64,000 nt of DNA from NCBI GenBank assembly GCA_900318105.1, contig ONJG01000013.1, positions 5,089 through 69,088 of the forward strand. Reading direction: 5' to 3'. Position 1 is the first letter of the stretch. Each line of letters starts with the position of its first letter. The stretch comes from an uncultured Eubacteriales bacterium (GTDB lineage Bacteria > Bacillota > Clostridia > Peptostreptococcales > Anaerovoracaceae). Below, piece by piece: positions 13,723 through 51,454 of the stretch. The notes below the pieces were generated by a model. It saw nothing but the letters and a program-made list of their open reading frames with translations. It did not search any database and was not told where the DNA came from. The position numbers and the translations under genes were made by a program.

Positions 13723-14361
13723 CTACCTGGAATTATAAAGACATATCTGACTTAATATGCACGCATCACAATCCGGTTTTCTTGCATGGCAAATCTTTCT
13801 TCCATGAAATATAAGCAAATGATGCGACCTGATCCACTGCTCCTCGGGAATCCTCTTTCTGAGCTGTTCCTCTGTTTTTTCAACATCCTTTGCATTGGCT
13901 ATTCCGATTCTGTTGGAAACTCTGAATACGTGGGTATCTACCGCTATTGCGGGAACACCGAATGCCTCGGCAAGCACTACATTTGCCGTCTTTCTGCCGA
14001 CTCCCGGGAGACTCACAAGCTCATCGAAACTTCCCGGAACTTCCCCTCCGAAATCGTCGCATATCTTTGCTGCGAGTTTTACGATATTTACCGATTTGTT
14101 TTTGTAAAGACCTATTGTATGAATAATCTCCGAGACATCATCCGGATCCGCAGCGGCCAGAGCATGGGCATCGGGGTACCTTTCAAACAGGGCAGGTGTC
14201 ACCTTATTTACACTGACATCAGTGGTCTGTGCCGATAAAACAACAGCAACAATAAGCTCAAATCTGCTCCTGTGATCCAGCGCACATGCAGCTTCCGGAT
14301 GCATCTCCTCCAGCAGCGCCAGTGCTTCCTGTATTTCATTTTCCTTCAGTCTTTTTCTCAT
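13723..14361 (-). CDS. nth: endonuclease III
   Basis: 212-aa ORF with the HhH-GPD motif LPGVGRKTANVV and the C-terminal 4Fe-4S cluster CHARKPDCDACILSQIC. Confidence 0.93.
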   Translation of the reverse strand: MRKRLKENEIQEALALLEEMHPEAACALDHRSRFELIVAVVLSAQTTDVSVNKVTPALFERYPDAHALAAADPDDVSEIIHTIGLYKNKSVNIVKLAAKICDDFGGEVPGSFDELVSLPGVGRKTANVVLAEAFGVPAIAVDTHVFRVSNRIGIANAKDVEKTEEQLRKRIPEEQWIRSHHLLIFHGRKICHARKPDCDACILSQICLYNSR

Positions 14362-26836: not shown

Positions 26837-28186
26837 TTATGCATCCTCTTTGAACGCATCCAGTTTCTGTGTGTAATTCCAGACCATAATTGCCTGAACG
26901 GTCTGCGAAACAAGTGAACCGGTCCATACTCCCCAGATTCCCATTTTTAGGACAAATACGCATACAGCCAGTACGCTGAGATTAACAAAGGCGAAAGATA
27001 CTATGCTGGCTCTCATCACCTCTTTCATCGCACCGACTCCCTGCAGGCATCCGACATAAGCAAACTTAAGAGTCTGGCTTATAGTGATGGCGCCTATAAA
27101 CAGGCAGGATTTGGCTCCTATGGATATGAATTCTGCTTCATTACTGAAGAAACCAAAGAATGTACGGCCTCCTAAAATGAACAGCGCTGCCAGTATCAGG
27201 GCGGAAACTGCCGACAGAGAGATTATGTTTCTCTTATATTGTTTAAGAAGTGCTTTGTCCTTGGCGCCGTGTGATCTGCCTATAAGTGCAACCGCAGCCG
27301 TCTGAAGACCCGTTCCGACAGCGACATTTACATTGAGAAGATGCATTCCTATTGAATATACCGCCATCTGGAACGATCCGATTCTGGCTACTATACCTGA
27401 AATTATCAGAATACTAACTCTGGTAGCCAGGCTGTCGGTAAAGGTGCTCCTGTACATCTCAAGCACCTCTTTGGAGCCCTCTTTGGTGGGCCTGAATTTC
27501 TTGCCCAGGCAGTAAGGAATATTTACAAAGTAATCCTTCTTCATGGCAACTATGGTCATCTGAATACATGCTGCCACCATACCGGCTACTGTAGCTATTG
27601 CAGCTCCTTTAACTCCGAGAGCCGGAAAACCAAAATGTCCTTCTATGAGCAGGTAATTGAGAATGATATTTACCACGCTCGATACAACATTCGAAATGAA
27701 TGTAAGATTGGTCTTTCCGAATCCCCGCATCGCAGCGTTAATGGCCATAAATACTGTATTGAAAATCATTCCGCCCATTACTATTCTGAAGTAGACAACA
27801 GAAGCATCCAGGGTATCCTCCTGATGAGAGAACACAATCATGAGAGGCCTGGCCAGCACTACAGCCAGTATGCTGAGTATGATGCTCGCAATGATAACGA
27901 ATTTCATAATGAGGTCGAATATGCGGTTTGCCTCATCTCTGTTCTTTTCTCCGACGCATCTGGCCACCAGGCTGGTCAGCACAATGTTAATCGAAAAGAA
28001 CACCGAAAGTATAAACAGTCTCGGCGCATTTGTAACGGATATTGCGGAGATGGCAGTTACGCCGAGAGCCGACACCATCTTGGAATCGATGATGTTGGTA
28101 AAAGTCGTAAACAGAGTCTCCAGAAATGAAGGAACTCCGATTTTATAAATCTCTGTTGATAAGTCTCTGTCTATTTTAAATCCCAT
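26837..28186 (-). CDS. MATE-family efflux transporter
   Basis: 449-aa, roughly 12-TM ORF with a MATE-like N-terminus (IYKIGVPSFLETLFTTFTNIIDSKMVSALG). Confidence 0.88.
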   Translation of the reverse strand: MGFKIDRDLSTEIYKIGVPSFLETLFTTFTNIIDSKMVSALGVTAISAISVTNAPRLFILSVFFSINIVLTSLVARCVGEKNRDEANRIFDLIMKFVIIASIILSILAVVLARPLMIVFSHQEDTLDASVVYFRIVMGGMIFNTVFMAINAAMRGFGKTNLTFISNVVSSVVNIILNYLLIEGHFGFPALGVKGAAIATVAGMVAACIQMTIVAMKKDYFVNIPYCLGKKFRPTKEGSKEVLEMYRSTFTDSLATRVSILIISGIVARIGSFQMAVYSIGMHLLNVNVAVGTGLQTAAVALIGRSHGAKDKALLKQYKRNIISLSAVSALILAALFILGGRTFFGFFSNEAEFISIGAKSCLFIGAITISQTLKFAYVGCLQGVGAMKEVMRASIVSFAFVNLSVLAVCVFVLKMGIWGVWTGSLVSQTVQAIMVWNYTQKLDAFKEDA

Positions 28187-28220: not shown

Positions 28221-29270
28221 TTAATCGCAATTATTACTTTTCCTTCTTCGAAGCTGGCCGCATGCAGCATCTATATCGCTTCCGAGAGTCCTCCTGACGG
28301 TTGCTGCTATCCCTTTATGTTCAAGGATTTCCTTAAACCTCAGGACATTCTCTCCACGGGCTTTTCTGTATTCTCTGCCCTCTACTTCATTAAGCGGTAT
28401 GAGATTGACGTGCGCCAGCATACCCTTTAGATGCGATGCCAGCTCCTCTGCGCATTGCCTTGAATCATTTACTCCGTCTATAAGAGCATATTCAAAGGTG
28501 ATTCTGCGACCCGTAGCATCAGTATACTCCTTACATGCCTGAATTAGTTCATTAAATTCATATTTTTTTGCGACAGGCATGGTTTTTTCCCTGAGCTCCT
28601 GATTCGGCGCATGCAGCGAGATTGCGAGATTGACCTGAGGAAAATCCCCGGCAAACTGCCTGATCCCCGGGATAATACCGCAGCTCGAAACAGTAATATT
28701 TCTGAGGCTCAGGTTGTATCCCCCGGGTTCATGAATGAGTTTAATAAATCTTCCGAGCTCGTCGTAGTTATCAAAAGGTTCTCCCATTCCCATGACCACG
28801 ACGTGATTTATATCCTCTCCTGTATGATTTCGCATGGCCAGTACTTCGCCGAGCATCTCGCCTCCAGTGAGTCCCCGCTCCAGACCATCCATGGTTGATG
28901 CGCAGAAAGTGCATCCCATGCGGCATCCCACCTGTGACGAAATGCAGATCGAATTACCGTAGCTGTATTTCATAAATACCGATTCGACCATAGCACCATC
29001 CGAAAAGCTGAACAGGCACTTCACAGTCCCGTCTTTTGATTCTCTGCTGTCTGTAATCTCCGGCTGTCCTATGTAATAATTCTCTGCGAGTTTTTCTCTC
29101 AGGGCTGCCGGCACATTATTCATATCGGCAAAGTCAGCGACACCCTTTGAAAGCCAGCCGAAAACCTGATCTGCCCTGAATGGCTTTTCTCCATATGCTG
29201 AAACGACCCCGCGTAATTCAGCGGGGCCGAGGTTCAGAATATTTTGTTTGCCGTTAATCGAATCATTCAT
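28221..29270 (-). CDS. rlmN: 23S rRNA (adenine2503-C2)-methyltransferase RlmN
   Basis: 349-aa ORF with the radical-SAM motif CRMGCTFCAS and a C-terminal catalytic Cys (DIDAACGQL). Confidence 0.94.
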   Translation of the reverse strand: MNDSINGKQNILNLGPAELRGVVSAYGEKPFRADQVFGWLSKGVADFADMNNVPAALREKLAENYYIGQPEITDSRESKDGTVKCLFSFSDGAMVESVFMKYSYGNSICISSQVGCRMGCTFCASTMDGLERGLTGGEMLGEVLAMRNHTGEDINHVVVMGMGEPFDNYDELGRFIKLIHEPGGYNLSLRNITVSSCGIIPGIRQFAGDFPQVNLAISLHAPNQELREKTMPVAKKYEFNELIQACKEYTDATGRRITFEYALIDGVNDSRQCAEELASHLKGMLAHVNLIPLNEVEGREYRKARGENVLRFKEILEHKGIAATVRRTLGSDIDAACGQLRRRKSNNCD

Positions 29271-29272
29271 TG

Positions 29273-32200
29273 TCAGATGCGCTCAACCTTGATGCCGGTC
29301 TTATGACCGTTGATATCGAAACTGTCAAGTCCGCTTGCATTTTCAATAGATACGGCTATCGTCTCATCCATGATGAAATCCTTTGCGTCATTAGCCGCTT
29401 TGCTGATTTCATCATCTGCTTCAAGGTAGATTTTAATCTGATCCATCATCTCGAAATCAGCCTGCTTTCTGAGCTGCTGTATTTTGGAGATGATCTCTCT
29501 TACATAACCCTGATCGATGAGTTCCCGGGTAAGAGTCGTGTCAAGGATTACAAACACGTTGTTATCCATGCCTACCACAAAGCCTTCCTTTGAGGAAATC
29601 CTTACATCAAGATAGTCTTCAGTAATCTCGTATTTTTCGCCGCCGAGCTCCATCTCGAGCGGTCCCTGAGCGATTTTTGAAATAGTCTCCTTTGCATCAA
29701 AGCCGGAGAGCTTTGAGCCGAATTCCTTTATATTCTTTCCAAGTACAGGTCCCGCAGTCTTGAAGTTTGGCTTGATCTGGAAGTTCATGTACTTATCAAG
29801 ATCATCTTCGAACTGAACTTCGTGTACATTGAGCTCTTCCATGATAAGTCCGGTGAGGTCACCAATAATATCTTTATAGTTACCATCTACAATGACCTTT
29901 GAAAGCGGCTGTCTTACCTTGAGTTTTTCCTGTTCTCTGGTGCTGCGTCCGAGATTGACAAGGGTCTTTACCAGGTCCATTCTCTCTTCAACCTTATCAT
30001 CTATCAGGCTTTCATCAGCCTTTGGATAATATGCGGTATGTACGGTTTCTTCTCCGGTAAGTTTTGTGTAGATTTCGTCTGCGATAAACGGTGCTACCGG
30101 CGCCATCATCTTGGCAACGCCTGTCAGAACTTCATAAGTCGTCGCATATGCAGCTCTCTTGTCAGCGCTCATGTTCTCGCCTTCGCCCTCGGCAAAGAAT
30201 CTTCTTCTGGCTCTTCTGATATACCAGTTTGACAGGTCTCCGTCGATAAACTCGCTGATAGCCCTTACGGTCCTCATGTGATCGTACTCGTCCATGGATT
30301 CCGTTGTCGATTTAATGAGTTTGTTGTACTTTGAGATAATCCATCTGTCGAGTTCGGGTCTTTCGGCATAAGGCACATCGAAATACTTAGTCTCAGCCTT
30401 GTCTATATTTGCATAGAGACAGAAGAAATTATATGTATTTCTCAGCGTGCTGAACACCTTGCTGATAACTTCTTTTACACCGTCCTCGTCATATTTGGTC
30501 GGTGTCCACGCAGGTGATGTCTGAAGGAGATACCACCTTACTGCATCGGCTCCGTATTTATCCATCTGATCGAACGGATCAACGGTGTTTCCGATGTGCT
30601 TGCTCATTTTCTTTCCGTTCTTGTCGAGTATGAGGTCGTTTACGAGCACGTTTCTGTACGGCGCACATCCCTTTACTATGGTTGATATGGCCATAAGTGA
30701 ATAGAACCATCCCCTGGTCTGGTCGATTCCCTCGTTGATGAAATCAGCAGGGAAAAGCTCCTCATCGAATTTGTCTGCATTTTCAAACGGATAATGCCAC
30801 TGTGCATAAGGCATCGCACCTGAGTCAAACCAGCAGTCCATAACTTCCGGTATCCTGTGCATGCTCTTTCCGCACTCGGGGCATTTGATGGTTATGTCAT
30901 CCACATAAGGTCTGTGGAGCTCTATCGACATATCGATATCCTGCTCAACGTCCGCGATAAGCTGTTCACGCGATCCCACGCAGTGAAGGTGTCCGCACTC
31001 GCACTTCCAGATCGGAATCGGAGTTCCCCAGTATCTGGATCTCGAAATAGCCCAGTCCTTGACGTCCTCGAGCCAGTTGCCGAATCTCTTTTCTCCGACA
31101 TAAGGCGGATACCAGTTGACCGTGTTGTTGTTTGCAACGAGCTGATCTCTCAGCTTGGTCATCTCTATGTACCAGGACTTGTTTGCATAGTATACAAGAG
31201 GAGTGCCGCATCTCCAGCAGTGCGGATATGCGTGCTCCATTTTTTGCTTGGAATAAATCTTGTTGTCCTGTGCGAGATACTTGATGATATCCACATCAAG
31301 TCCGTCTTCCATTACAAATCTGCCTGCCCATGGTGTCTCGGTATAGCAGCCTCTCTCATCAACGGGCTGCATTACTGCGAGATTGTACTTGCGTCCGCAG
31401 TTATAGTCGTCTTCACCGAAAGCAGGTGCCGTATGAACGATGCCCGTGCCGTCTTCCGTGGATACATAATCCATACATGTCACGATGAATGCGTTCTTTC
31501 CCTCTTCCGGTTTTACGAACGGCTCGAGCTGATCATAAGTCCAGTACTCCATTTCTGAGCCCTTGATCTTTTCAACCACCTCATATTCATCATTGGCCAG
31601 CACCTTGCCTGCAAGAGCCTCGGCCAGCCAGAGGTAATCACCCTCGCTGTCTCCTGACTTCATCAGGCATTTGACGTAATCGATATCCGGACCGACCGTA
31701 AGTGCGATATTTGATGCGAGAGTCCACGGAGTTGTGGTCCATGCGAGGAAATACTCATTATCATTGTCGCAGTTCGTACGATGGAATCTGCAGGTAAGGG
31801 TGTTTACCTTAACATCCTTGTAGCCCTGTGCCACCTCGTGCGAAGCAAGGCCCGTTCCGCAGCGCGGGCAGTATGGAAGAATCTTATATCCCTCATATAC
31901 GAGTCCTTTATCAAAGGCGTTCTTTATAATCCACCAGCCGGTCTCGATATAATCATTTTTGTAGGTGATATACGGGTCTTCCATGTCCGCAAGATAAGCC
32001 ATCTTTTCGGACATATCCGTCCACATCTGTGTGTATTTAAATACGGATTCACGACATTTTTCGTTGAATTCCTTGATTCCGTATTTTTCTATGTTTTGTT
32101 TTCCGGAGAGACCAAGCTGTTTTTCAACCTCTATCTCAACAGGGAGTCCGTGAGTATCCCAGCCACCTTTGCGCTTGACCTGAAATCCCTGCATGGTCTT

Positions 32201-32410
32201 GTATCTGTTGATCGAGTCCTTGAGGGTCCTGGCCATCATATGATGTATGCCGGGCTTGCCGTTGGCAGTAGGCGGACCTTCGTAGAATACGAACGAAGGT
32301 GATCCTTCACGTGCTTTTACGCAGAGATTGAGCATGTCCATCTTGTTCCATTCTTTGACCTGCTCCGCCTGAACCTCAGCTACTGGTTTATCCGATAAAT
32401 TCTGAAACAT
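29273..32410 (-). CDS. ileS: isoleucine--tRNA ligase, long type-2 (eukaryote-like) form
   Basis: 1045-aa ORF with the HIGH region GPPTANGKPGIHH and a KMSKHIGN (KMSKS) loop. The length and HIGH context match IleRS2 rather than the roughly 920-aa IleRS1. Confidence 0.95.
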   Translation of the reverse strand: MFQNLSDKPVAEVQAEQVKEWNKMDMLNLCVKAREGSPSFVFYEGPPTANGKPGIHHMMARTLKDSINRYKTMQGFQVKRKGGWDTHGLPVEIEVEKQLGLSGKQNIEKYGIKEFNEKCRESVFKYTQMWTDMSEKMAYLADMEDPYITYKNDYIETGWWIIKNAFDKGLVYEGYKILPYCPRCGTGLASHEVAQGYKDVKVNTLTCRFHRTNCDNDNEYFLAWTTTPWTLASNIALTVGPDIDYVKCLMKSGDSEGDYLWLAEALAGKVLANDEYEVVEKIKGSEMEYWTYDQLEPFVKPEEGKNAFIVTCMDYVSTEDGTGIVHTAPAFGEDDYNCGRKYNLAVMQPVDERGCYTETPWAGRFVMEDGLDVDIIKYLAQDNKIYSKQKMEHAYPHCWRCGTPLVYYANKSWYIEMTKLRDQLVANNNTVNWYPPYVGEKRFGNWLEDVKDWAISRSRYWGTPIPIWKCECGHLHCVGSREQLIADVEQDIDMSIELHRPYVDDITIKCPECGKSMHRIPEVMDCWFDSGAMPYAQWHYPFENADKFDEELFPADFINEGIDQTRGWFYSLMAISTIVKGCAPYRNVLVNDLILDKNGKKMSKHIGNTVDPFDQMDKYGADAVRWYLLQTSPAWTPTKYDEDGVKEVISKVFSTLRNTYNFFCLYANIDKAETKYFDVPYAERPELDRWIISKYNKLIKSTTESMDEYDHMRTVRAISEFIDGDLSNWYIRRARRRFFAEGEGENMSADKRAAYATTYEVLTGVAKMMAPVAPFIADEIYTKLTGEETVHTAYYPKADESLIDDKVEERMDLVKTLVNLGRSTREQEKLKVRQPLSKVIVDGNYKDIIGDLTGLIMEELNVHEVQFEDDLDKYMNFQIKPNFKTAGPVLGKNIKEFGSKLSGFDAKETISKIAQGPLEMELGGEKYEITEDYLDVRISSKEGFVVGMDNNVFVILDTTLTRELIDQGYVREIISKIQQLRKQADFEMMDQIKIYLEADDEISKAANDAKDFIMDETIAVSIENASGLDSFDINGHKTGIKVERI

Positions 32411-32512
32411 ATGAGTTATTTCTCCTGTAAATTATAGTTTTGTTTGCTCCCGCAATTGCTCATTTTAACACATCAGAGCATCTCATAACAGTCTGATTAT
32501 TTGAAAACAGCG

Positions 32513-34435
32513 CTATCTCTTTTTGGGTCCCGGTTTTTTGTCGCCTTTGCCGTCTTTATTACGATAAAACTCATTGCGCTGAGCTCTCTCCTCCGCCCTT
32601 CTCATCTTTACGTAGGCTGCGAGGTCGTTACTGTCAATTTCCATTATCTCCTTGTCTGTTTCAACATTGGAGATAATATCGGACACTCTGTCATAACTCT
32701 TGATAAAGAGTTCAACTGACTGTTTTATAGTGTTCATCCTGTCACTGTTTTCCGATTCCTTCATGACAGATTCCATTCCGTACTCGTCCTCTACTGCGTG
32801 ATTGGTTGTGTTCCTGACATCTCCGACATAATAGTAGGCAAACATCAGGTTAAGGAGCGCTTCCTGATCGGGGCAGATTGTATGGGAGCGTATGAATCCT
32901 TCATCCGGATCATCAATCTGTTTAACCCTGAATTTTGCATATTCTCTGTGATACAGCCTTCTGTCTTTTTTCTGGCCGACTGCACCCCTGCCGTAGAACT
33001 TCACAAAGTAATGCGAAATATCATCCATTTTGTATTTTTCAAATGGTTTCATATCATAATAAATCTGACCGAAATTGTTAATTACGGCTTCTTTCTCTTC
33101 TTCACTGCTGCAATAGTAGTAAATGCCTTTTTCAACAAAATCTTTGGGTGCCCTGGACTCGATGATTGTAAGAGTCTGTTGCCAGAATTCCTTTCTGTAA
33201 GCCCATTTGACAAGGTCTATAAACTCTATTTCATCCGTCTCGAGGAGATGTCCGTAATCATCGACTATGGCCTGTCCTATGTAAGTGAAGAAATGCTCCG
33301 TAAATGTCGAGCCGGCAACCACTTCATCTCCGGTTTTAAGGAGATTTCTGAGACTGGAGATACCCCTCTCAATATCTGAAATATCGCAAAGAGATATACC
33401 AATGTCTATATTTCTCATAGCATACAGGACGCTCTCTATATATTCGTTGCGAACGCCCGTCCTGTTCCAGTAGTCAAGGAGTATATCTGTCTTGCCGTAT
33501 CTGAGAAATGCTCTCGCACCTGCGAGAAGCTCGTTTATTCCGAATGATTCTGTGCTGTCGCTGATCCTGTTTGCGAGCTCATCCTGATCCTTTGTGGTGG
33601 TTACGATTTTGACCAGATTGAGATTGCTGTTCGGAAAAGCTTTAAGCGCATCCATGAGGTTTACCAGAATAAATGAGTCGGTAATGTCGTCGCTCTGCAG
33701 ACACATATAGAGCTCTACTTCGTTTCCATTCTGGGCATTTGCGATTTCCTGGAGGCAGCTTATTAGCCTGTCGAGCATGATGCCCTTTCCTCTCTTGAGT
33801 GAGATGAACCTCACCTTGACATCGTCGTTGCTGTCCAGCGCCTCGAATTTCGAGGAATCTTTCATTTCCTCATGAAGATAATTGGATATCCACCTGGTGC
33901 AGCTGACTAAATCCGCATCCTTGGCAAACTCATTTTGTACGGACTCAATCAATTCGGCTCTCAGTCTGCTGTCCTGCGCAAGTATGTCAAAGAACTTGTT
34001 GAACTTGTGAGTGCCGTCCGTATTCACTCTTTCCCTGAAGAATTTCTTGAGAAACTCTTCCAGCCTGTCCTGAACTTCAGGCGCCACGAGATCTCTCAGG
34101 TCCTGTTTTTCAATATCTATTTCATCGATAAACTCAGCCAGTCTGTACCTGAGCAGGCTGTATGTTGAAAGCGTGTTTGTGTCGGATGCATAGAAAGACT
34201 TGCCTTCTTTAAGGACGATTGGAATAAGGTCGTCACCCTCGTCGAATGTAGACTTTGTACCGAAAGTGACTATCTCATCGATGTCATAATTCGAGAGCAT
34301 GTATTTGCAGCTTGCCTCGGCAGACATCATGGCATCGCAGTACATCCTGCGTTCGCCCTGTTTTGCAAAGTAATAGTTGAGTCCCTCATTGGAATCCCCT
34401 CTGTAGAGGGATGTAATCATAACTCTGTATTTCAT
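32513..34435 (-). CDS. CARF-HEPN protein (Csx1/Csm6-like), orphan
   Basis: 640 aa counted from the ATG at 34435, which has AAGGAGA 6 nt upstream; the ORF-track start at 34453 overlaps that RBS. The N-terminus MKYRVMITSLYRG...EIVTFGTKST looks like a CARF beta1 strand and loop. DITDSF sits where the DxTHG motif would be. The C-terminal VRNTTNHA (32798-32815) is an R-x4-H HEPN motif. Confidence 0.6.
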   Translation of the reverse strand: MKYRVMITSLYRGDSNEGLNYYFAKQGERRMYCDAMMSAEASCKYMLSNYDIDEIVTFGTKSTFDEGDDLIPIVLKEGKSFYASDTNTLSTYSLLRYRLAEFIDEIDIEKQDLRDLVAPEVQDRLEEFLKKFFRERVNTDGTHKFNKFFDILAQDSRLRAELIESVQNEFAKDADLVSCTRWISNYLHEEMKDSSKFEALDSNDDVKVRFISLKRGKGIMLDRLISCLQEIANAQNGNEVELYMCLQSDDITDSFILVNLMDALKAFPNSNLNLVKIVTTTKDQDELANRISDSTESFGINELLAGARAFLRYGKTDILLDYWNRTGVRNEYIESVLYAMRNIDIGISLCDISDIERGISSLRNLLKTGDEVVAGSTFTEHFFTYIGQAIVDDYGHLLETDEIEFIDLVKWAYRKEFWQQTLTIIESRAPKDFVEKGIYYYCSSEEEKEAVINNFGQIYYDMKPFEKYKMDDISHYFVKFYGRGAVGQKKDRRLYHREYAKFRVKQIDDPDEGFIRSHTICPDQEALLNLMFAYYYVGDVRNTTNHAVEDEYGMESVMKESENSDRMNTIKQSVELFIKSYDRVSDIISNVETDKEIMEIDSNDLAAYVKMRRAEERAQRNEFYRNKDGKGDKKPGPKKR

Positions 34436-34481
34436 AATAGTTCTCCTTTTCAAACCCGCTATATTGTATCATATAATTGCG

Positions 34482-34510
34482 TTGACGCTTAGGTTTACAA
34501 GATATAAAAT
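34482..34510 (+). promoter_or_regulatory. sigma-A-type promoter for the 34548 gene
   Basis: TTGACG (34482-34487), a 17-nt spacer, then TAAAAT (34505-34510). It lies about 38 nt upstream of the ATG, which has an AAAGGAAG RBS. Confidence 0.5.
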
Positions 34511-34547
34511 TACAAAAAATTCAGCTTATTTCGATTGAAAGGAAGAC

Positions 34548-34874
34548 ATGCCTCTAATTATTCTGGGAGCAATAGTTGTAATAGCAATCATCATTTACTG
34601 GTATATCGGAAATCAAAACAGTGATGAACCCATAGATCCGCGCGAAATACGCGACCGGTATTCACACGCCTTTGAAGAAAAAGCCAGAGACATCGCAAAC
34701 GGCGTCGGAGACGATATCAAAAAAACCGTCAGGAAACGCGCCGGCATATTCGATGTCGACTACGATGTTGAGGATGACGGATACGGGGCCCGTGATTCAA
34801 AGGATCCTGAAGACAACACCATCCCGTTTCCATCAGATGTTGAAGGCGAAAAACGAAAACGCGATATCCATTGA
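34548..34874 (+). CDS. small membrane-anchored acidic protein, hypothetical
   Basis: 108-aa ORF with one N-terminal TM helix (PLIILGAIVVIAIIIYWYI) and a charged D/E/K-rich tail. Its own promoter, RBS and downstream terminator support expression. Confidence 0.6.
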   Translation: MPLIILGAIVVIAIIIYWYIGNQNSDEPIDPREIRDRYSHAFEEKARDIANGVGDDIKKTVRKRAGIFDVDYDVEDDGYGARDSKDPEDNTIPFPSDVEGEKRKRDIH

Positions 34875-34900
34875 AAACCGTTATCCGGTAACGGATGAAT

Positions 34901-34940
34901 AAAATCAAAAGGCGGTTCGTATGAACCGCCTCTTTTGTTT
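34901..34940. terminator. bidirectional rho-independent terminator
   Basis: Stem aggcggttc (34910-34918) / gaaccgcct (34923-34931) with a 4-nt loop. An A-run lies upstream and a T-run downstream. It sits between convergent genes. Confidence 0.8.
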
Positions 34941-34942
34941 GC

Positions 34943-35260
34943 TTATTTGAGTTCGCTCTTGATCTGTTCGAATTTCTCTTTGAGCTTGTCGTCGAGATCT
35001 GTGTTTCCAAGAACGTCATCAGCCATAGCCTTGAGATCGCTTACCTTGGACATTACTTTTTCATCGAGATCTGTTTTTCCGAGAACGTCCTTGGCCTTGG
35101 AGAGTGCCTTCTCGTCGAGGTCTGTTCCCTCGAGGACTGCATCAGCCTTGGTCTTGAGTTCAGTGAACTTGGCTACTGCCTTTTCATCAAGGTCTGTTTT
35201 GTTCAGAGCTTCCTCTGCAGCTTTTTTAAGTTCTGCTGCGAATTTTGCGAAATCTGCCAT
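34943..35260 (-). CDS. small hydrophilic TDLDEK-repeat protein, hypothetical
   Basis: 105-aa K/E/D-rich ORF with four copies of the (G)xTDLD(E/D)K motif. It has an AAAGGAGA RBS and ends at the bidirectional terminator. Confidence 0.65.
   Translation of the reverse strand: MADFAKFAAELKKAAEEALNKTDLDEKAVAKFTELKTKADAVLEGTDLDEKALSKAKDVLGKTDLDEKVMSKVSDLKAMADDVLGNTDLDDKLKEKFEQIKSELK
34986..35200 (-). repeat. in-frame tandem repeats encoding the TDLDEK motif
   Basis: The core tc(g/a)tc(g/a)ag(a/g)tctgt recurs, with tctgt at 34998, 35070, 35121 and 35193. The spacings are 72, 51 and 72 bp, which equal 24, 17 and 24 codons. Confidence 0.7.
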
Positions 35261-35322
35261 AATTGTCTCCTTTCAACAATTGATAACTTAAGTGTTATTG
35301 TATGATATTTTACTTATGCAAG

Positions 35323-35339
35323 ATTAATCCCGGATTAAT
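35323..35339. promoter_or_regulatory. 8-1-8 palindrome between pnp and the repeat-protein gene (weak terminator or operator)
   Basis: The sequence attaatcc-c-ggattaat. On the minus strand it abuts a TTGCAT hexamer. Its function is unknown. Confidence 0.3.
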
Positions 35340-35345
35340 TTACTT

Positions 35346-37463
35346 TTAATCTTTGACGAGCTCCTTGCGTGAAAGGTTGATCCTGTTCTGGCTGTCAATC
35401 TCCGTAACCTTTACGGTCACTTTGTCTCCGATGTTCATAACATCCTCGACCTTTTCAACCCTGTGATTTGCAATCTTCGAAATATGAAGCAGTCCTTCCT
35501 TACCTGGCAGGATCTCGATAAATGCACCGAAGTTCATAATTCTGGTAACGGTACCTTCGTAGATTTCTCCGACCTCAACATCCTTTGTGATGAGTTCAAT
35601 CTCCTTCTTTGCAGCCTCAGCGCTTTCCTGATCAACTGCGTAGATGGCGATGAATCCGACATCATCATCGGAAATATCGATCTTGGCACCGGTCTCCTCG
35701 ACGATTCTGTTTACGGTCTTTCCTCCCGGTCCGATTACGAGTCTTACCTTATCAGGATCGATTCTCATGCTGATAAACCTAGGAGCATACGGGCTGAGCT
35801 CTTTGCGTGGCTCAGGAATCTCCTCGAGCATGTTCTGGAGGATGTGCGCCCTTCCGACCTTGGCCTGTTCAAGCGCCTGCTCCATAATCTCCTTGGAAAG
35901 GCCGTGAACCTTGATGTCCATCTGAAGAGCAGTAACACCATCAGGTGTGCCCGTTACCTTGAAGTCCATGTCTCCGAGGAAGTCTTCCATGCCCTGAATA
36001 TCGCTCAGGATGGCGAACTTGCTGGAGCCGTCTTCGTTGAATCCTTCGATAAGGCCCATTGCGATACCACTGACAGGCTTTTTAATCGGAACGCCTGCAT
36101 CCATCAGTGCGAGCGTGGAGCCGCATGTTGAAGCCATTGAAGATGATCCGTTGGATGAGAGAATCTCGGATACCACTCTGATGGCATACGGGAACTCCTC
36201 CTCGCTCGGAAGCACCGGCAGAAGCGCTCTTTCAGCAAGAGCACCATGACCGATTTCTCTTCTGCCAGGTGATCTTGACGGCTTGGCCTCGCCTGTGCAG
36301 TATCCCGGGAAGTTGTACTGATGCATATATCTCTTTCTCGTTACATCGTCATCGATGCCGTCGAGCCACTGCGCTTCCGAAAGCGGTGCGAGTGTAGCGA
36401 TTGAAAGAGCCTGTGTCTGTCCTCTCTTGAAGAGTCCGGATCCGTGAGTTCTCGGAAGATATCCCGTCTCGCTCCAGAGCGGTCTGATCTCATCAGGTCT
36501 TCTGTCATCAGGTCTTACGCCCTCATCAAGGATTCTGCGTCTTACCTCTTCCTTTTTGATGTTATAGAGAACCTCGTCAACCTCGGCCATTCTGTCTTCG
36601 AATTCCTCTGCAAAATGCTCTTTTGCATCCTCTGCAACAGCGTCCATGTTGGCGATTCTTTCCTGCTTGTCGAATGTGTAGATTGCATCAACCATCTTCT
36701 GTGTTGAATACTCTCTTACTGCGGCATCAACGTCTTCGCCTGCCTTGAATACGACATAATCCTGTTTTTCCTTGCCGACCTCGGCTACGATATCCTTGAT
36801 GAATCTGCAGATATCCTTGATAGCCTCATGTCCGAAAAGAATAGCCTCGAGCATCTTCTCTTCGGGTACCTCATTTGCACCTGCCTCTACCATCATGATG
36901 GCTTCTTCTGTTCCGCAGATATCGAGGTGCAGATCGGATTTCTGTCTCTGCTCGAATGTAGGATTGAGCACGAGCTCTCCGTCCACTATTCCGACGATAA
37001 CGCCGGCAGTCGGACCGTCCCATGGAATATCTGAAATGGCAAGTGCCACGGATGTACCGATAAGCGATGCCACCTCAGGTGAGCAGTCGTGGTCGACAGA
37101 AAATGCTGTGGCTGTCACAACTACATCATTTCTGTATCCCTTTGGGAAAAGCGGTCTGAGAGGTCTGTCGATAAGCCTTGAAACAAGTGTGGCTTTATCG
37201 CTCGGACGTCCTTCTCTTTTGAGATAACCACCCGGGATCTTTCCAACCGAGTAGAGCTTTTCCTCAAAATTGCAGGTCAGCGGGAAGAAATCCACATCCT
37301 GCTTCGGTTCCTTGCTTGCGCAGACAGTGCAGCTGATGACCGTGTCGCCGTATCTGACAACTGCCTGTCCGTTGGCCTGCTCTGCGATCTTTCCGATTTC
37401 AACCTCGAGAAGTCTGCCGCCGAGTGCCGTCTTATAAGTCTTGTAATCTTCGTATCTACCCAT
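35346..37463 (-). CDS. pnp: polyribonucleotide nucleotidyltransferase (PNPase)
   Basis: 705-aa ORF with two RNase PH domains plus KH and S1 domains (VGEIYEGTVTRIMNFGAFIEILPGKEGLLHIS). Confidence 0.97.
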   Translation of the reverse strand: MGRYEDYKTYKTALGGRLLEVEIGKIAEQANGQAVVRYGDTVISCTVCASKEPKQDVDFFPLTCNFEEKLYSVGKIPGGYLKREGRPSDKATLVSRLIDRPLRPLFPKGYRNDVVVTATAFSVDHDCSPEVASLIGTSVALAISDIPWDGPTAGVIVGIVDGELVLNPTFEQRQKSDLHLDICGTEEAIMMVEAGANEVPEEKMLEAILFGHEAIKDICRFIKDIVAEVGKEKQDYVVFKAGEDVDAAVREYSTQKMVDAIYTFDKQERIANMDAVAEDAKEHFAEEFEDRMAEVDEVLYNIKKEEVRRRILDEGVRPDDRRPDEIRPLWSETGYLPRTHGSGLFKRGQTQALSIATLAPLSEAQWLDGIDDDVTRKRYMHQYNFPGYCTGEAKPSRSPGRREIGHGALAERALLPVLPSEEEFPYAIRVVSEILSSNGSSSMASTCGSTLALMDAGVPIKKPVSGIAMGLIEGFNEDGSSKFAILSDIQGMEDFLGDMDFKVTGTPDGVTALQMDIKVHGLSKEIMEQALEQAKVGRAHILQNMLEEIPEPRKELSPYAPRFISMRIDPDKVRLVIGPGGKTVNRIVEETGAKIDISDDDVGFIAIYAVDQESAEAAKKEIELITKDVEVGEIYEGTVTRIMNFGAFIEILPGKEGLLHISKIANHRVEKVEDVMNIGDKVTVKVTEIDSQNRINLSRKELVKD

Positions 37464-48926: not shown

Positions 48927-50903
48927 TTAATTCTGCACTTTTAGCTGTTCATTATCCTTTATGAGCATCCTCATGGAATTGAGAATACATATGACTGCAA
49001 CACCAACATCCGCAAATACGGCAACCCACATATTGGCTATGCCTGCAGCACCGAGTATGAGGCAGGCGAACTTCACAAAGAGCGCAAATACTATATTCAT
49101 CCTGGAAATGCCTATTGTCCTGGATGCAATTTTCATTACCTTTGGAATTCTGGTCAGATTATCATCCATAATGACCACGTCCGCTGCTTCTATCGCGGCA
49201 TCGGAGCCAAGAGATCCCATGGCTATTCCGACATCGGCGATGGACAGAACCGGAGCATCGTTTATTCCGTCTCCTATAAATGCGAGTTTGCCCTTTCCTT
49301 TTGTCGATGCCTTTATCACAGAGAGCATCTCCTCAGCAACATTTACTTTGTCCTGTGGCAGCAGCTCCGCTCTGTAGTCTGTGATGCCAAGTTCTGATGC
49401 AACGGATGAGGCCACGCTCTCAGAGTCTCCTGTGAGCATCACGACGTGCTTTACTCCTGCTTTGAGCATGGCTGAGATAGCTTCTTTTGCATTGGCTTTG
49501 GGCTTATCCGATACGACAATCGTGCCAATGTATTTGCCGTTCCTGGCCACATAGCAATGCGTGCCCGCTGCATCGGCCAAAGTATCCTCTGTCTCTATGC
49601 CCTGCTCTTCCAGGTAGGATTTTTTACCCACGATAATCTCATCCCTGCCTACTATGGCCTTGACTCCGCCTCCTGCCTGAACCTGCGTATCCTTAATTTT
49701 TGAAGGCGGATATGGTTTTTTGCATGCTTCGGTTATGGCAGATGCTATAGGATGTGTGGAGCCAGACTCTGCAGCCGCAGCGTACCTTATGAGCTCGTCA
49801 GTGTCCATTTCCCCGGCAGCTTCCATGTAGCTTACACTGAATTTACCCTCTGTGAGAGTTCCTGTCTTGTCGGTGACTATTGTGTCGAGCATGGACATCT
49901 GCTCAAGGAAATTTGAGCCCTTTACAAGGACGCCTTCCTTTGATGCAGCTCCTATCCCTCCGAAAAATGCAAGCGGAACCGATATCACAAGGGCGCACGG
50001 GCATGAGATTACAAGGAATGTGCATGCTCTCAGCAGCCATTTTGAGAATTCTGCCGTAAAGTTTCCGGATATGAGCGGCGGTATAAATGCGAGAGCCACA
50101 GCAGCAATTACGACAATTGGTGTGTAATATTTTGCAAATCTCGTGATAAAGCTCTCGGTTTCGGATTTCCTCGAAGCTGCATTTTCGACAAGCTCGAGTA
50201 TCTGCATTACGGTTGAGTCGTCATACTCTTTGACAGCCTGAACCTTGAGGAGCGTGTCACCGTTTATGCATCCCGATATCACGCTTTCTCCTTCTTTCAC
50301 CTCTCTCGGAACGGATTCTCCGGTCAGGGCCGCAGTGTTTATAAGCCCGTGCCCTTCGACAACAAGAGCATCCGTCGGTATCCTCTCACCGGGTTTTACG
50401 ATGAGGATGTCGCCGACTTCTATATCATCGGGTTCTATTACTTCAGTGCTGCCGTCCTCGTTTTCCCTGTTCGCGAATTCCGGTGCTATGTCCATAAGAT
50501 CCGAAATTGCACCTCTGGATTTACCGACAGCGTAGCTCTGAAAGAACTCACCCACCTGATAGAAGAGCATAACGGCGACGGCTTCCTCAAACTCTCCGCA
50601 GCCGAATGCTCCGACCGTGGCAAGTGTCATTAGAAAACTCTCATCAAAAAGCTGTTTGTTCTTAATCCCGATAAAGCACTTGCGAATGACATCGTGACCC
50701 ACGATGAAATACGGAACAAGATATAAAAGCTTGATTGCAATCCCTGCATAAAGAGCAGGCGAAGCTGGCGCGCTCCCGGGTCCCTCCGCTGTTTCTAAAG
50801 GCGGGAGTAAGAGGTGCTCCGCTGCCAGAAGCAGCGCAAACATCACCAGCGCAATTATGATTCTTTTTAATTCTATTTTTTGTTTTTCTGTTAATTGATT
50901 CAT
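48927..50903 (-). CDS. cadA: heavy-metal (Cd/Zn/Co-type) translocating P1B-type ATPase
   Basis: 658-aa ORF with SCPCALVIS in a TM helix, the phosphorylation site DKTGTLT, GDGINDAP and HP motifs. It has no fused N-terminal HMA domain. Confidence 0.9.
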   Translation of the reverse strand: MNQLTEKQKIELKRIIIALVMFALLLAAEHLLLPPLETAEGPGSAPASPALYAGIAIKLLYLVPYFIVGHDVIRKCFIGIKNKQLFDESFLMTLATVGAFGCGEFEEAVAVMLFYQVGEFFQSYAVGKSRGAISDLMDIAPEFANRENEDGSTEVIEPDDIEVGDILIVKPGERIPTDALVVEGHGLINTAALTGESVPREVKEGESVISGCINGDTLLKVQAVKEYDDSTVMQILELVENAASRKSETESFITRFAKYYTPIVVIAAVALAFIPPLISGNFTAEFSKWLLRACTFLVISCPCALVISVPLAFFGGIGAASKEGVLVKGSNFLEQMSMLDTIVTDKTGTLTEGKFSVSYMEAAGEMDTDELIRYAAAAESGSTHPIASAITEACKKPYPPSKIKDTQVQAGGGVKAIVGRDEIIVGKKSYLEEQGIETEDTLADAAGTHCYVARNGKYIGTIVVSDKPKANAKEAISAMLKAGVKHVVMLTGDSESVASSVASELGITDYRAELLPQDKVNVAEEMLSVIKASTKGKGKLAFIGDGINDAPVLSIADVGIAMGSLGSDAAIEAADVVIMDDNLTRIPKVMKIASRTIGISRMNIVFALFVKFACLILGAAGIANMWVAVFADVGVAVICILNSMRMLIKDNEQLKVQN

Positions 50904-51139: not shown

Positions 51140-51454
51140 TTATTCCTCAATATGTTCTTTGCCCATGGCGATAATCGTCTTTACGTGTTCGTCATCAAGC
51201 GAATAATAGATGGCTTTGCCGTCTCTTCTGCTCTTTACGAGTTTGCCGGCCTTTAGCGCCCTGAGCTGATGCGATACGGCAGACTGATTCATCTCAATAT
51301 CTTCACAGATTTCAGTCACGTTATTTTCTCCGTCAAAGAGATCATAGAGAATCTTGATGCGTGTAGAGTCTGCAAACATCTTGAAGAGATCCGCCAGATC
51401 AAGCAAATCCTCCTCGCTCATTCCTTTCAGTTTGTAATCATCGCTTGATTTCAT
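51140..51454 (-). CDS. ArsR/SmtB-family metal-sensing repressor (alpha5-site type)
   Basis: 104-aa ORF with the HTH segment STRIKILYDL...QSAVSHQLRALKAGKLV. The C-terminal DDEHVKTIIAMGKEHIEE fits a D-x-H-x10-H-x2-E site. Confidence 0.88.
   Translation of the reverse strand: MKSSDDYKLKGMSEEDLLDLADLFKMFADSTRIKILYDLFDGENNVTEICEDIEMNQSAVSHQLRALKAGKLVKSRRDGKAIYYSLDDEHVKTIIAMGKEHIEE

Follow-up and report, generated by a model that had tools for sequence, protein, structure and literature searches.

The 64-kb stretch analysed here (hereafter the window; contig ONJG01000013.1 of an uncultured Eubacteriales bacterium of the Anaerovoracaceae) carries on its (-) strand a gene, here called X, that encodes a 640-amino-acid (aa) Csx1-like protein with a predicted CARF domain, a central helix-turn-helix (HTH)-like domain and a HEPN domain. 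The open reading frame (ORF) occupies positions 32513..34435, with the stop codon at 32513-32515 and an ATG start codon at 34435, upstream of which an AAGGAG block is present at 34443-34448. An alternative TTG start at 34453 would add 6 aa; the ATG was favoured because the N-termini of the homologues read MK[YH]R.... On the same strand X is followed by ileS (29273-32410, with its ATG at 32410, assigned from the ORF and homologues), rlmN (28221-29270) and a gene for a transporter of the multidrug and toxic compound extrusion (MATE) family, MatE (26837..28186). A first-pass annotation, made from the sequence alone, had proposed that X is an orphan CARF-HEPN effector, and all of the peptides cited in it were found in the translation of X.

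Domain architecture and family of the Csx1-like protein

The proposed CARF-HEPN fusion was borne out by PADLOC profiles and by Foldseek matches to Csx1 and Csm6. Protein X matched the PADLOC profiles CARF2--CARF_HEPN (E 1.5e-23), 'CARF' (Csx1; E 1.5e-17) and Csx1/Csm6 (E 1e-16); the Csx1/Csm6 alignment spanned residues 289-626, and the best PADLOC stretches covered residues 288-484. Only the PADLOC CARF-HEPN and Csx1 models matched; Pfam, including Cas_DxTHG, and NCBIfam, including the Csx1/TIGRFAM models, each returned no family at E<=10. A current Pfam scan of five homologues yielded sub-threshold noise only, and the PF27248 tag precomputed for some homologues was not reproduced in that scan. 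A sequence search of the PDB with X alone or with a 66-sequence profile also gave no match.

An AlphaFold2 (AF2) model of X was built on 66 homologues and had a predicted local distance difference test (pLDDT) score of 84.5. Comparison of this model with the PDB using Foldseek revealed that the best matches were all Csx1 or Csm6 proteins, in agreement with the first-pass assignment; the top six were Csx1-Crn2 chains and SisCsx1 ranked eighth. In particular, Marinitoga Csx1-Crn2 (8y6z/8y7g) was matched with an E value of 2e-7 and a template modelling (TM) score of 0.42-0.51 on the target, and SisCsx1 (6qzt) and Csm6 (6tug/5fsh) were also found. The separate fragment structures of CARF-HTH (8y75; E 4e-5, TM 0.52-0.55) and CARF-less HTH-HEPN (8y7f; probability 0.99) were each matched alone, and thus both halves of X back the Csx1-like assignment. 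Judged by the profile matches and the model, X is a genuine Csx1 relative whose predicted CARF sensor is followed by a central HTH-like helical domain and then by a HEPN domain.

The HEPN domain (residues 405-590; 32666..33223, (-)) is all-helical in the model and was delimited with the PADLOC Csx1/Csm6 profile and the Foldseek match to 8y7f. It contains the predicted catalytic motif R541-N-T-T-N-H546 (Rx4H), which maps exactly to nucleotides (nt) 32798..32815 (-), where it had been placed at first pass. We found R541, N542 and H546 to be invariant in the 66 aligned homologues, and the pattern RNxx[NSC]H was retained in every complete homologue, down to 24% identity. The HEPN residues of Csx1-Crn2 are R401, N402 and H406 (PMC11317161), and the RNxxxH spacing in X is the same. 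Because both R and H are invariant, the possibility that these residues vary among homologues, which the first-pass annotation had itself named as fatal to its reading, does not apply. The other such condition, an absence of CARF or HEPN similarity, did not hold either.

The central helical (HTH-like) domain (residues 298-404; 33224..33544, (-)) was recognised from the PADLOC match to residues 288-484 and from the Foldseek matches to 8y75 and 8y7f. It harbours the most conserved block of the protein, IDxGISLCDI, in which I343-D351 are invariant. The C-terminal region (residues 591-640; 32516..32665, (-)) consists of a helix (602-629 in the model) followed by a low-complexity basic tail modelled with low confidence. 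The Lys/Arg-rich tail remarked upon earlier is therefore present. It is no conserved motif: the C-terminal tails of the homologues are variable, of low complexity and polar or basic.

A word-indexed search identified 232 homologues of X, all full length and all 'hypothetical', and a profile search of 1.8 billion representatives identified 225 clusters at E<=1e-30. The whole family is at present annotated as 'hypothetical protein' without a Pfam or NCBIfam model. X belongs to a large clade of proteins of about 620-650 aa, here termed short-type. For the genomic context, 69 homologue loci from species-representative genomes and 44 from metagenomes were used, and the range read was 64 kb in the source genome and up to 10 kb per side in relatives, as contigs allowed.

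Homologues were present in Bacillota, Spirochaetota (Sphaerochaetaceae), Actinomycetota (Coriobacteriales/Atopobiaceae) and Chloroflexota (Flexilinea, Leptolinea). Within Bacillota, they were found in Lachnospiraceae, Anaerovoracaceae, Mogibacterium, Oscillospiraceae, Christensenella, Solobacterium and Oribacterium sp. NK2B42. Nearly all came from ruminant gut sets of metagenome-assembled genomes. This occurrence mostly in one ecosystem, across four phyla, indicates niche-specific horizontal spread. Searches of phage (INPHARED), plasmid (PLSDB) and IMG/VR sequences revealed no homologue, and a literature search for CARF domains in rumen organisms returned nothing relevant.

The CARF domain and its separation from CRISPR loci

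The CARF domain of X is formed by two segments. The N-terminal part (residues 1-61; 34253..34435, (-)) comprises strand 1 (ITSL, with T8/S9), a β-hairpin, helix 1 (SAEASCKY) and strand 2, and the C-terminal part (residues 206-297; 33545..33820, (-)) comprises strands 3-6, as judged from the model strands and the match to 8y75. The CARF strands in the AF2 model span residues 3-9, 54-59, 207-212, 240-247, 272-281 and 288-293, with helices between them. Between strands 2 and 3 lies a family-specific helical insertion of ~145 aa (residues 62-205; 33821..34252, (-)), whose helices cover residues 79-190 in the model and whose conserved residues include R96, Y97, R98, D112, F149 and W182. The earlier observation that X is longer than typical Csx1/Csm6 proteins was correct; most of the excess was traced to this insertion within the CARF domain, and the remainder to the C-terminal helix and basic tail. 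Modelled alone, the insertion formed a helical bundle with a moderate pLDDT of 71, and this isolated model had no significant structural match in the PDB (best E 2.2).

The CARF signature was described as a Ser/Thr that ends strand 1 and a basic residue just after strand 4, in the form [DN]x[ST]xxx[RK] (Makarova et al. 2014, PMC4012209). The first of these elements is present in X, with T8 found in 63 of the 66 homologues and S, P or T at position 9. T8, L10, E40, A41, K44 and Y45 are conserved in the family and common to its long-type relatives described below. The second element is absent, both as [DN]x[ST]xxx[RK] and as the TxGxR/K of motif II. As evident from the column frequencies and the comparison with long-type relatives, the motif II region of X is CLQSDDITDSF (residues 245-255; 33671..33703, (-)), in which C245-L-Q-S-D-D-I251 carries Asp and Ile in place of the Gly and the Arg/Lys. 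The consensus of the clade to which the window protein belongs is C-x-Q-[SN]-[DE]-[DN]-[AI], and other short-type clades have DMQG[LIM]xx[AV] or VSLGNDSxVD. The motif-II Arg was kept by no short-type clade.

The motif II of Csx1-Crn2 is TxGxR, and its Arg inserts into the ring of cyclic tetra-adenylate (cA4) and touches the phosphates (PMC11317161). Since the residues that hold the phosphates of cyclic oligoadenylate (cOA) are gone from X, its activating ligand is probably not a canonical cOA. The 'degenerate DxTHG' of the first-pass annotation, read at the level of sequence, is a remodelled motif II without the Gly and the cOA-binding basic residue. As proposed, predicted strand 4 (240-247) is closely followed by the segment DITDSF (residues 250-255), at the place assigned to DxTHG, but the equivalence is positional only. 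From the sequence register and the predicted secondary structure, the ligand site of X appears to be kept but retuned. The CARF families RtcR and RV2818 are likewise devoid of a basic residue following strand 4, and other ligands have been predicted for them (PMC4012209).

The degenerate motif II would also suit a HEPN toxin or abortive-infection ribonuclease (RNase) that acts independently of any ligand, in which the CARF domain would survive as a structural relic or serve as a scaffold for oligomerisation and control comes from expression, a protein partner or a phage trigger. The strong conservation of the CARF core and the insertion (T8, D34, E40, K44, D53, R96-R98, N203, D293 and T295) goes beyond the needs of a scaffold and speaks against this explanation, which we regard as quite unlikely, also in view of the neighbouring genes presented in the next section.

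Long-type relatives of 720-1000 aa, such as P0199 (from locus L127) and the L069 protein, are homologous to X in the CARF core and in the central and HEPN domains, and P0199 matched the profile of the X family in hmmsearch with an E value of about 1e-72. They share with X the N-terminal LTT[LM]S...YC.G...E.G.KY motifs, the RNxxNH motif and the helical CARF insertion. In contrast to X, they retain a D-M-Q-G-G-x-R motif II (D-[VM]-Q-G-G-x-R-T-D-G-Y as a pattern), and their insertion is longer. The gene for P0199 (845 aa) adjoins genes for RAMP, Csx19, Cas10 (palm) and Cas6 in a type III-like locus (L127 3469-13376). The distant L069 relative (853 aa) has a genuine CRISPR array nearby, with the repeat GTGCTTATCTTCCCCAATGGGGGATTGAAAC (L069 1-9300, 13047-13337). 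P0204, the third long-type relative examined, had no obvious cas neighbours. Because P0199 and the L069 protein sit by a type III locus and an array, the short-type clade descends from, or is sister to, CRISPR-linked proteins and has lost the linkage.

No CRISPR array was found in the window by three scans, including TRF and a repeat finder, and an Rfam search of the whole window gave no match and hence neither a CRISPR repeat family nor a T-box. PADLOC analysis of the 43 other window proteins revealed no cas gene. The orphan status proposed for X at first pass therefore held in the window, and it also extended to the short-type homologue loci, which had no array: among 76 scanned sequences (75 loci and the window, 1.15 Mb), a genuine array was present in L069 only. 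CRISPR-like k-mer matches in L071 (14168-16212), L074 (16441-16615) and L075 (13696-13973) correspond to coding tandem repeats of ~55-60 nt and were rejected as arrays because their 'spacers' are identical. No cas families were present among the 25 listed of the 74 PADLOC families matched by 135 distinct neighbour proteins, and no cas genes stood beside short-type X in the annotated homologue-locus contexts examined. The short-type clade has left type III CRISPR-Cas loci.

A 'Csa3' match of PADLOC in the window (51140-51454, (-), E 1.3e-19) was also rejected, as it is a 104-aa ArsR-type HTH protein and not a CARF protein. This protein meets the CasR and CARF3 models as well, through its HTH alone, and constitutes a false-positive trap for cas annotation. 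Its neighbour (48927-50903, (-), 658 aa) is best read as a P-type metal ATPase, an assignment made by size.

These results bear on the idea that X is a trans-acting type III effector, namely an ordinary cOA-activated Csx1 that is encoded away from CRISPR-Cas and answers cOA made by Cas10. The Csx1-like architecture with an intact HEPN motif, the long-type sister in a type III locus and another by a CRISPR array, and the several pocket residues common to the long-type relatives are all consistent with it, and every CARF family has some members that are unlinked to CRISPR (Makarova et al. 2014, PMC4012209). Against it, ~80 non-redundant short-type loci had no array within the range read, the listed neighbour matches included no cas families, the cA4-contacting Gly and Arg of motif II are lost across the clade, with acidic residues instead, and X tracks MATE transporter genes. 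The loss of motif II together with the complete absence of CRISPR linkage weakens this explanation, and we consider it unlikely.

The MATE transporter and the ileS junction

The transporter gene in the window (26837..28186, (-)) lies between rlmN and plsX and encodes a 449-aa protein of MatE subfamily C (Pfam MatE, E 1e-44), a likely partner of X. For the neighbour analysis, ORFs were called in all loci and the neighbours were clustered. With X clustered at 90% identity, 24/84 clusters had MatE as the immediate same-strand neighbour of X (P about 4e-19), as did 20/65 with both flanks readable, and the background frequency of MatE in the same loci was 10/811 (1.2%). Clustering at 60% gave 7/37 (P 3e-5). 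The stop and start codons of X and MatE mostly overlapped by 4 or 1 nt (gaps of -4 or -1), and both gene orders were observed. Three MatE subfamilies, with less than 45% identity to one another, were found beside X. The MatE of the window shares 68% identity with the MatE encoded immediately before X in another locus (L014). In the reciprocal test, 3/4 independently chosen homologues of the window MatE were followed at once by an X homologue, with 48%, 28% and 29% identity to the window X. The searchable literature on CARF or HEPN proteins with MATE transporters contained nothing relevant and no precedent.

Other recurrent neighbours of X were YitT/DUF2179 membrane proteins, SDR enzymes, ABC exporters and a carboxylesterase. 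Most neighbours were metabolic, and defence genes made up a handful among 135 neighbour families. At few loci, AbiO, Nhi, DRT UG26, PD-T4-6 kinase and HaeIII-type restriction enzyme genes were present. A defence-island hypothesis was set aside on account of these few defence neighbours, which are not decisive. In one locus of a Clostridiales lineage (L004 7262-9992), genes for a HaeIII-type restriction endonuclease and a Ser/Thr kinase immediately precede X, and the kinase probably accounts for a PD-T4-6 match. The few loci with nearby defence genes, and the patchy distribution over four phyla with closest relatives that lack X, a pattern typical of accessory or defence genes, would agree with the ligand-independent toxin introduced above. 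The predominance of metabolic over defence neighbours, the absence of homologues from the phage, plasmid and IMG/VR collections and the lack of a conserved antitoxin-like partner argue against it.

The ileS-pnp junction was compared among relatives, as had been suggested at first pass. The closest named IleS proteins were those of Mogibacterium (72%) and of Emergencia, Ihubacter and Anaerovoracaceae (71%), which identifies the source as an uncultured clostridium resembling Anaerovoracaceae. In the three closest relatives (IleS identities of 90, 87 and 81%), both X and MatE were absent. Two of these loci (L131 and L132) have truB-ribF-rpsO-pnp upstream of a variable region, and all three have ileS-rlmN-plsX-rnc-smc-ftsY-der downstream. 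In the window, X is inserted between a small divergent ORF (34548-34874) and ileS, and MatE between rlmN and plsX, so that the ileS-rlmN pair (28221..32410, (-)) is now flanked by X and MatE. Read from these gene arrangements, X and MatE are recent acquisitions in this lineage. The GC content around X (0.436-0.447) is inside the range of the window, and the NCBIfam matches of the window form a housekeeping Bacillota array (PolC, SMC, IF-2, NusA, PheT, Der and MiaB).

The small divergent ORF (34548..34874, (+)) encodes a 108-aa membrane-anchored acidic protein whose N-terminus forms a transmembrane helix and whose tail is acidic. In the closest relative (L129/L130), a homologue with 60% identity is the immediate divergent neighbour upstream of ileS; a weaker one (40%) lies ~2 kb upstream of ileS in L131, with a GGDEF gene between, and none was detected in L132. 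The ancestral ileS promoter region ended, on its upstream side, at this ORF. The block upstream of ileS in L129, AGCGTCAACG...TGATATAATAT, aligned with the block AGCGTCAACG...TGATACAATAT upstream of X (34461..34489, (-)), a putative promoter, and not with the X-ileS spacer. Therefore, X was inserted behind the old ileS promoter. The spacer itself (32411..32512, (-), 102 nt) contains a TATAAT sequence and the ileS ribosome-binding site, and no terminator was found in it by scanning.

To judge from the sequence, the promoter that formerly served ileS probably drives joint transcription of X and ileS in this genome. The same-strand gaps are 102 nt between X and ileS, 2 nt between ileS and rlmN and 34 nt between rlmN and MatE, and co-transcription of all four genes is plausible. 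The first-pass statement that X is wedged between pnp and ileS was correct for the ileS side (same strand, 102 nt, no terminator), but pnp is not the immediate neighbour: between pnp (35346-37463) and X lie two small ORFs, one at 34548-34874 (+) and the other at 34943-35260 (-), as well as a bidirectional terminator at 34907-34934.

A regulator dedicated to the MATE operon or to local RNA would be a further explanation: X would respond to the substrate of the transporter and adjust efflux by cutting or binding particular mRNAs, such as that of its own operon, with no role in defence or growth arrest. The overlapping stop and start codons with MatE in both orders, the reciprocal linkage, the limitation of the family mostly to the ruminant gut and the apparent single transcription unit of X, ileS, rlmN and MatE are in its favour. 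Most family members, however, have no adjacent MatE, known Csx1/Csm6 HEPN RNases are generally non-specific, and the searchable literature holds no precedent that joins HEPN or CARF to MATE. We consider this explanation very unlikely.

Several side observations were made around the junction and elsewhere in the window. The pnp-ileS interval (32411-35345 in the window) is a variable hotspot in the lineage: it contains ppk and a GGDEF gene in L131, ppk and a Na+/H+ antiporter gene in L132, and X with two small ORFs in the window. In L129, where pnp lies outside the locus, genes for a 2980-aa protein and an arylsulfotransferase-like protein are upstream of ileS. The ORF at 34943-35260 (-) encodes 105 aa with four imperfect repeats of ~24 aa (TDLDEK...), corresponding to four 39-nt direct repeats with a spacing of 51-72 nt, and is followed by the strong bidirectional terminator at 34907-34934. 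No T-box or other Rfam leader was found upstream of ileS (32411-32512, 34436-34547), and the intergenic regions in the window and in relatives are too short for one (128 nt in L129). The missing leader is unusual for a Bacillota ileS. A 212-aa protein (13723-14361, (-)) matched the PADLOC model 'REase_II, type II nicking endonuclease' (E 5.7e-19). A PADLOC match to 'mad3' of the MADS system (E 1.6e-64) was obtained for the window and for none of 30 individually scanned proteins; its source is therefore among the remaining large housekeeping-like ORFs (such as PolC, SMC, IF-2, NusA, Der, cardiolipin synthase or P-type ATPase), and it is probably a generic domain match.

Proposed mechanism and comparison with known systems

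CARF-HEPN RNases are understood almost wholly as receivers of the type III cyclic-oligoadenylate alarm. We lean, by a little better than an even chance, towards the view that X is a ligand-gated RNase that has been retuned to a non-cOA signal and is tied to a MATE transporter in part of the family. By analogy with Csx1 and Csm6, X may act as a homodimer or higher oligomer. As in Csx1-Crn2 and Csm6, a ligand bound between the CARF domains of a dimer would rotate them, and this movement, passed on as a twist of the central domain, would join two Rx4H motifs into a composite RNase site. Another small molecule may serve as the ligand, with a cellular level that is coupled to the partner MATE: the transporter could carry it as a substrate, or the coupling could run via the transport state of MATE. 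RNA cleavage would lead to growth arrest or to a stress or defence response.

A more specific version of this proposal is that X and the MATE transporter constitute a two-gene, CRISPR-independent signalling module that is spreading among ruminant-gut bacteria. X, retuned through motif II and the insertion, would sense a non-cOA compound handled by the transporter, which could be a xenobiotic, a toxin or an exported molecule resembling a nucleotide, and transporter load or phage-induced membrane events would trigger RNA cleavage and growth arrest. We offer this version tentatively and consider it rather doubtful in its full form.

Several results weigh against a retuned, MATE-linked RNase. The pocket residues T8, E40 and K44 are conserved and common to the long-type relatives, and cOA may therefore still bind in a non-canonical way. 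With single-linkage clustering at 45%, the adjacency of X and MatE decreased to only 3/14 (P 0.004), and part of the adjacency signal is shared ancestry. About 70% of the X family has no adjacent MatE, X and MatE are 4.3 kb apart in the window, and MATE genes are common in Clostridia. Additionally, type III systems elsewhere in X-bearing genomes, outside the loci that were read, may exist and would be compatible with the data.

The kind of protein to which X belongs is already known, as the PADLOC profiles detect it, and CRISPR-unlinked CARF genes have been noted since 2014 (PMC4012209). The clade-wide loss of cOA-contacting residues, the CARF insertion, the cross-phylum restriction to the ruminant gut and the coupling to MATE are not described in the literature searched, which did not extend to the 2020 CARF classification (Makarova et al., NAR). 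The clade is of importance in that it is large and well conserved, has kept the RNase site, has left CRISPR loci, has a changed sensor and shows repeated coupling to MATE. If the favoured reading is true, X would exemplify the natural rewiring of a CRISPR signalling effector to another input, would provide a tractable route to new CARF ligands and would represent the first link between a HEPN RNase and a MATE transporter in the literature searched.

Finally, X was compared with known systems. Csx1 proteins (Marinitoga sp. Csx1-Crn2, 8Y6Z/8Y7G, with domain limits taken from PMC11317161; S. islandicus, 6QZT) have the same order of CARF, central HTH-like and HEPN domains and ranked highest in Foldseek (E from 2e-7 to 9e-4, with TM scores on the target as high as 0.51-0.55). 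The differences are that X has Q-S-D-D-I in place of TxGxR/K, a 145-aa CARF insertion and no Crn2 domain, that its gene is not in or near a type III CRISPR-Cas locus, and that it has no sequence-level match in the PDB. Csm6 proteins (T. thermophilus, 5FSH/8JH1; E. italicus, 6TUG) also have a CARF-helical-HEPN organisation, and Csm6 is itself a cOA-gated RNase. The Foldseek matches of Csm6 to X were weaker (E 6e-4 to 1e-2, TM 0.2-0.3); unlike X, Csm6 has a middle domain of a different type and is CRISPR-associated. RtcR-type sensors are an earlier example of a CARF domain at work outside CRISPR-Cas. As in X, this domain lacks a basic residue after strand 4, and a different ligand has been predicted for it (PMC4012209), whereas RtcR has a sigma-54 AAA+ activator with an HTH as its output domain instead of a HEPN RNase.

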